From Escherichia coli (GTDB lineage Bacteria; Pseudomonadota; Gammaproteobacteria; Enterobacterales; Enterobacteriaceae), in the NCBI RefSeq assembly GCF_048403405.1, contig NZ_CP183129.1: a stretch of 64,000 nt of DNA, one strand, 5' to 3'. The notes under the pieces are model-generated. The model was not told the DNA's origin, did not search any database, and was given only the letters and a program-made list of their open reading frames with translations. Numbering within the stretch: position 1 is the first letter of the stretch; every line of letters starts with the position of its first letter. Below, piece after piece: positions 57,401 to 57,850 of the stretch. The translations under genes were made by a program, and so were the position numbers.

Positions 57401-57850
57401 TCGGGTTCTGGGAAAACTGTCCGCGAACCAGATTGAAGGCGATCTCGTTAAAACAGTGGGCAAAGCTTTCCCCGGGACTCCCGTGCACCGGAGCGGTGGC
57501 CATCAGGGACCATTACCGTCAGGGTTTATGACGATCAGCCGTTTGACCGGCAGATTGTTATTCCGGCGGTGGCATTCAGCGGCGCTAAACATGAGAGAGA
57601 GCATACTGATATTTACTCCTCATGCCGTCTGATAGTGCGGAAAAACGGTGCTGAAATTTATAACCGTACCGCGCTGGATAATACGCTGATTTACAGTGGC
57701 GTTATTGATATGCCTGCCGGTCACGGTCACATGACGCTGGAGTTTTCGGTGTCAGCATGGCTGGTAAATGACTGGTATCCCACAGCAAGTATCAGCGATT
57801 TGCTGGTTGTGGTGATGAAGAAAGCCACCGCAGGCATCAGTATCAGCTGA
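54456..57850 (+). pseudogene. host-specificity / central tail-fibre protein J, interrupted by a -1 frameshift in a poly-C tract near 57470 (could be a sequencing error)
   Basis: Starts [34 protein letters not shown]; the frame becomes nonsensical after ...VKTVGKAFP, while the -1 frame from about 57474 encodes the expected continuation ...[47 protein letters not shown]... to 57850. Confidence 0.7.

Follow-up and report, generated by a model that had tools for sequence, protein, structure and literature searches.

In phage lambda, the C-terminal receptor-binding domain of the host-specificity protein gpJ is essential for adsorption and DNA ejection (PMC11101478). Four loops of this Ig-like domain reach into LamB, and when the domain opens, the changes that lead to tail opening are triggered (PMC11101478). 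A frameshift that splits a tail gene is on record for stf of lambda PaPa (Hendrix and Duda, 1992, as cited in PMC9997739). Here we describe a J gene of an Escherichia coli prophage whose reading frame, as recorded, is broken by one missing base at the start of the receptor-binding domain.

The window, by which we mean the whole stretch of 64,000 nucleotides analysed, starts with about 19.4 kb of E. coli chromosome (position 1 onwards, ydgD to rspB) and then enters a lambda-like prophage, which occupies the Qin site between rspB and ydfJ. The prophage contains integrase, early, lysis and cold-shock genes, a full late operon that runs from terminase to the tail fibres, and the pinQ invertase. 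J is located between I and lom, and the gene order is the same as in lambda (H-M-L-K-I-J-lom-stf). The features of the late region that concern us are the following:

39486..54395, plus strand: rest of the late operon, from a small terminase-like gene to tail gene I, all full length and free of internal stops when compared with the annotated relative
54456..57632, plus strand: 5' part of J, 1006 native plus 52 out-of-frame residues (1058 aa) with a TGA stop, from the ORF and its translation
57467..57473, plus strand: T_TTC_CCC, formally an X_XXY_YYZ heptamer in the J frame, read from the sequence
57470..57473, plus strand: C4 run, one base shorter than the C5 of intact relatives, from alignment and population counts
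57474..57850, plus strand: 3' part of J in the -1 frame, corresponding to repaired residues 1007-1131, with the receptor-binding Ig-like domain and the stop
57569..57850, plus strand: 93-aa ORF with a GTG start, Pfam Ig_GpJ_C, from the ORF list

The J gene opens with an ATG at 54456, the start equivalent to that of the annotated gpJ in EcPNK004 (the mechanical ORF begins at a GTG at 54411), and its translation remains in frame through P1006. The initial annotation had placed a single-base frameshift in a C4 tract of this gene. We found cccc at exactly 57470-57473; the J frame is sensible up to ...VKTVGKAFP, and is followed by 52 out-of-frame residues (GTPVHRSGG...TPHAV) and a stop at 57630-57632. 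The remaining 125 residues are encoded in the -1 frame and end with a stop at 57848-57850, so both stops that had been reported, at 57632 and 57850, were recovered. Translation and alignment also agree with the proposed direction of the change, namely one base missing, with the C-terminus in the -1 frame. Insertion of one C in silico gave an open J of 1131 aa without internal stop. In an alignment of 92 columns against the nearest intact relative, the one-base gap of C4 versus C5 is the sole difference, and the last 600 nt of J are 99.83% identical to C5 relatives, with the missing C as the only difference. Hence the explanation by a C4 in place of a C5 holds, since a single C restores the 1131-aa frame and the relatives have C5. 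The 93-aa ORF is a by-product of the lesion that gene callers list separately, and is no gene; its exact sequence was also called on other contigs, downstream of various J lesions. No exact match to the truncated J protein was found in a collection of 15 billion proteins, and the best DNA matches to the window in the collections searched were at 99.3-99.5%.

The repaired J matched all six Pfam families at E <= 1e-33 (FNIII-A_GpJ, Phage-tail_3, Ig_J, Ig_J_second, Phage_Tail_Tip, and Ig_GpJ_C). According to Pfam, PF24801, PF13550, PF24421, PF24489, and PF09327 are all located N-terminal to residue 972, and PF12421 (Ig_GpJ_C, [quoted passage not shown]) covers residues 1001-1131 of the repaired protein (E = 6.7e-37). 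The frameshift after residue 1006 deletes 125 of the 131 residues of the PF12421 domain, so that the truncated J keeps the tail-tip hub, the FNIII/Ig domains and the central tail-tip-fibre domain, and lacks the receptor-binding domain. Repaired J also matched the lambda gpJ structures 8iyk and 8xcj (E about 1e-151), and its 3' part matched PDB 9wca ("A8 gpJ 713"). The continuation in the -1 frame is no chance match, because it matches both PF12421 and solved lambda gpJ structures.

Compared with lambda gpJ (8IYK, 8XCJ/8XCK), the repaired protein has nearly the same length (1131 versus 1132 aa) and the same Pfam architecture, and is near-identical over the compared part of its first 1006 residues. 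The break aligns with lambda gpJ residue ~1006 (8iyk, 8xcj/8xck), at the conserved FPR before the variable receptor-binding part, and thus within the conserved ...AFPR... motif that opens this domain. In contrast, the receptor-binding domain of the window is another sequence variant, which diverges after FPR and is closer to 9wca, so its receptor may differ from LamB. Lambda has no C-run at this codon (GCT TTT CCG CGC), and J of the window is interrupted, whereas members of the family are read in a single frame. Domain architecture, synteny and sequence agree on the identification of the gene as J (host specificity/tip attachment), as initially proposed; by the same three measures it is a member of the lambda gpJ family and, as recorded, a pseudogene of that family.

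In the closest complete genomes, EcPNK004 and Ecol_316, the same prophage has TTTCCCCCGGG and its gpJ is intact (WP_021520225.1). The comparison with homologous J genes that had been suggested as a check therefore came out as C5 with intact gpJ in the closest relatives. Over 26.5 kb aligned to EcPNK004 at 99.46% identity, no true single-base indel was found other than C4/C5. Each of the 30 further genes checked (30/30) was full length without internal stop, among them the genes for holin, terminase, portal and capsid, those from Z to I, lom, and the N-terminal part of stf. J is thus the only frame-breaking lesion within 26.5 kb of otherwise intact late genes, and, with a lesion where near-identical prophages have intact orthologues, J as recorded fits a pseudogene of a defective prophage. 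No homopolymer indels or frameshifts relative to the relatives were detected in the first ~25 kb of the window, comprising 19 kb of chromosome and the early region of the prophage. In the ~57 kb aligned, the only other homopolymer difference was a T5 in the window versus a T6 in GMF065 at 33239, in an intergenic position after the antiterminator gene.

Some further differences from the relatives were observed in this region. Inside J, the stretch 55500-57000 has 68 mismatches to the EcPNK004 prophage, with flanking genes 99.8-100% identical, a mosaic pattern that indicates a recombination tract within the gene. The tail-fibre C-terminal cassette at 61318-62360 (ORF 61278-62318, 346 aa) is unlike that of otherwise near-identical prophages and lies beside the pinQ invertase (62882-63472, minus strand); it probably represents an inverted or alternative segment of the tail fibre. 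In the window, the gene for the side tail fibre (58576-60987) is an 803-aa open frame, and the corresponding CDS in relatives is recorded in RefSeq as "incomplete, missing C-terminus".

In order to count the allele, 5,426 complete E. coli genomes were scanned with an exact 81-mer (C4) and an exact 82-mer (C5). The C4 81-mer was present in 17 genomes and the C5 82-mer in 864 records, and no C6 version was found among the complete E. coli genomes searched. J occurs in a median of 2 places per E. coli genome. We fetched 13 of the 17 C4 genomes for comparison of J, and among these C4 lay on at least 9 J backgrounds, 1-14% apart; in 12 of the 13 it was the sole J lesion, repair leaving no other stop. 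Two pairs, CRE444/492 and 639/455, have an identical J and closely matching genome size and origin, and both members carry C4, a pattern consistent with inheritance of the allele on the J sequences compared. E28 and E09 both carry a C4 J as well. RefSeq already flags C4 J genes as "frameshifted". All 17 complete genomes with C4 presumably belong to recent accession series. Outside complete genomes, a first IMG/VR scan gave C5 in 120 of 120 cases, a C4-only IMG/VR scan gave a single contig (L148), which from its IMG identifier we take to be an older isolate-genome draft, and short-read metagenome contigs gave 98 C5 and no C4. The short-read-era collections thus hold 1 C4 versus at least 218 C5 (at most 0.5%), compared with 1.9% in complete genomes, a difference that is not significant (p = 0.23).

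The C-terminus of J is also inactivated in other ways in other genomes. An IS3-family element of about 1.26 kb lies in J on L008 (2620-3905; CP027555), and likewise on L007 and L010. Its junctions read ...GCAAAGCTTTC on the 5' side of the IS and TTCCCCCGGGATT on the 3' side. The insertion duplicated 3 bp (TTC) at codon F1005, which immediately precedes the C-run, and it falls within the same 4 bp as the frameshift of the window. The three insertions look like a single event. Two nonsense mutations in the receptor-binding domain, TGG>TGA in L012 and CAG>TAG in L016, lie ~60-100 nt upstream of the 93-aa ORF and are independent of each other. Given the IS3-family insertion and these two nonsense mutations in other genomes, decay of J in prophages is common, and its C-terminus is inactivated in several ways.

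As to the cause of the break in the window, we give about an even chance to a real and recent pseudogenising mutation. Ordinary replication slippage would then have shortened a C5 run at codons 1005-1007 of J by one C, and the resulting 1058-aa protein would keep its hub, Ig/FNIII and central fibre domains, with the receptor-binding domain replaced by 52 nonsense residues. Judging from lambda biology, tails with this J would be unable to bind an outer-membrane receptor or to trigger DNA ejection, any particles released would be non-infectious, and the late region, otherwise complete, would be defective because of J. Such a mutation, if real, would be very recent: the DNA 3' of the tract matches intact alleles exactly, with no further change, which means that the C4 event is either very recent or not real. 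In favor of a real mutation, the window is otherwise clean, with one other, intergenic, homopolymer difference in ~57 kb, C4 is common to the pairs with identical J and is also found in L148, and prophages often have a decayed J. Against it, a consensus error in a 5-base homopolymer looks identical in one assembled sequence, and a pristine 3' end is equally expected from an error. That the strain in fact has C5 and an intact J, one C having been dropped by homopolymer under-calling in the assembly or consensus, is a serious possibility, to which we assign somewhat less than an even chance. Frame-shifting homopolymer indels are a documented systematic error of nanopore assemblies (PMC8011154). 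The likely source would be a long-read consensus, left unpolished because J is repeated across the prophages of one genome. Short-read polishing is expected to be weaker for a multi-copy gene such as J. Consistent with an error, the 3' part does not differ from intact alleles and the full ORF is recovered with a single added base; the backgrounds on which C4 recurs, at least 9, are unrelated; two different strains of one Bangkok submission (UID2309220031 and UID2309220033) both have it; and several C4 records come from assemblies with nearby frameshifts (Ch1 in tail gene K, MLI104K2 with 47 gaps, E28 in tail gene I, and GCA_949767355). Contractions number 17 and expansions 0, control homopolymers in J lose a base at a similar ~1-2%, as a general technical error would have it, and C4 is rare in the short-read-era collections (1 versus at least 218 C5). 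However, ~57 kb of the window gives no further indication of a noisy assembly and contains no second broken gene, the pairs with identical J are separately deposited records with the same C4, L148, taken as an older isolate draft, carries it too, and the rates of 1.9% in complete genomes and at most 0.5% in short-read-era collections are not significantly different (p = 0.23).

We regard it as very improbable that the C4 allele is a leaky or switchable form of J. In one version, -1 slippage on T_TTC_CCC, with tRNA-Phe and tRNA-Pro both slipping, would yield some full-length J of exact wild-type sequence, so that the allele would not be dead and the prophage would be weakly infectious; in the other, the C-run would be a reversible on/off contingency tract, a fragile site (adjacent palindrome AAAGCTTT, IS target) that repeatedly switches the receptor-binding domain off. 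Both versions, taken together, have a very small chance of being right. T_TTC_CCC at 57467-57473 does fit X_XXY_YYZ, a -1 slip gives the wild-type ...AFPRDS... (a formal match), four Cs would let tRNA-Pro re-pair one base back, and the tail tip is taken to need only three copies of J, judged from the trimeric receptor-binding domain (PMC11101478); the recurrence of C4 on many J backgrounds would fit switching. Nevertheless, no stable RNA was predicted downstream of the heptamer: the MFE was -31.4 kcal/mol, where shuffled sequences averaged -28.8 kcal/mol (z = -0.72), 43 of 200 shuffles folded as well, and the centroid had no helix near the site. Nor is a two-frame layout conserved, with 864 C5 versus 17 C4 exact matches in complete genomes, 120/120 C5 in IMG/VR and 98/0 in metagenomes, and lambda lacks the run. 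Programmed -1 frameshifting at J was therefore rejected as a candidate: the heptamer is present, but the downstream structure and a conserved split layout are both absent, and recoding is unsupported because relatives read J in one frame and no stimulatory fold follows the tract. Typical contingency tracts are longer than a 5-base run. This one varies in length in one direction only (C4 in 17 genomes, C6 in none), and its loss does not exceed that of comparable tracts in J. The perfect palindrome AAAGCTTT abuts the C-run (window 57462-57477), which itself sits in a near-palindrome, CCCC(C)GGG; the palindrome is a possible cause of local fragility, but no excess loss over control tracts was found. 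A special slippage hotspot was also considered, as raw losses of 17 versus 0-1 looked striking; the rates became indistinguishable once the denominators were counted. On exact backgrounds these were 864 records for the focal tract, 39 for a control C5 and about 75-94 for a control T6, giving loss rates of 17/881 (1.9%), 0/39 (0%) and 1 of about 76-95 (about 1.2%), respectively (Fisher p = 1.0; the controls are small, so that only a large excess is excluded). With similar rates of loss at the control homopolymers of J, there is no special hotspot, and the focal tract behaves like any run of 5-6 bases. We therefore dropped the suggestion of a slippage-prone tract: control-tract loss is similar, no C6 exists among the complete genomes, the relatives are overwhelmingly C5 and single-frame, and nothing beyond ordinary homopolymer behaviour is seen. 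Since defining features of each were looked for and not found, the J site does not count as a programmed frameshift site or as a contingency locus. A full-text literature search on host specificity protein J, frameshift and prophage returned nothing specific to this site.

The case is of little importance beyond annotation. If the mutation is real, a single lesion would prevent adsorption by a Qin-site lambdoid prophage that is otherwise complete, and this would be useful for predicting its spread; if it is an artefact, it is another false pseudogene from a homopolymer error in a repeated prophage gene. Either way, one frameshifted J should be annotated, not two genes. With about 1-2% of recorded copies losing a base at each 5-6-base J run examined, single homopolymer frameshifts in prophage tail genes should be taken as biology only with caution.

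The same operon offers a known system for comparison. Of the tail chaperone genes, G lies at 48303-48689 and T at 48698-49027; T is in the -1 frame relative to G, "ccggaaaag" stands near the end of G, and the arrangement appears to be the usual lambda-type G/GT programmed frameshift layout. This two-frame layout is found across lambda-like phages. The J site resembles it in being a formal slippery heptamer in the same operon that would need a -1 shift; in contrast, the G/GT layout is present both in this prophage and in the annotated relative, whereas the split J is a rare allele (about 2% or less). Much closer to J of the window are the gpJ genes that RefSeq calls "frameshifted" in Ch1 (QRM71_RS03835) and UID2309220031 (ACYTVL_RS13305), which are identical to it over 661 bp including the C4 and lie in the same Qin-site prophage with the same neighbour genes. 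They differ in that J of the window carries the mosaic patch at 55500-57000 with its 68 mismatches, and in that tail gene K of Ch1 contains another frameshift, which is absent from the window. C4 is the only derived marker common to the three. Common descent of the allele in these genomes was considered, but with no derived SNP shared besides C4, descent and recurrence fit equally well. By identity over the compared stretch, these RefSeq entries are the nearest precedents of J in the window, which is an ordinary, already-annotated kind of prophage pseudogene or a one-base assembly error, with no new mechanism. In kind, the nearest precedent is the stf frameshift of lambda PaPa; stf, however, is accessory and PaPa is fully infectious, whereas the receptor-binding domain of J is essential in lambda (PMC11101478).
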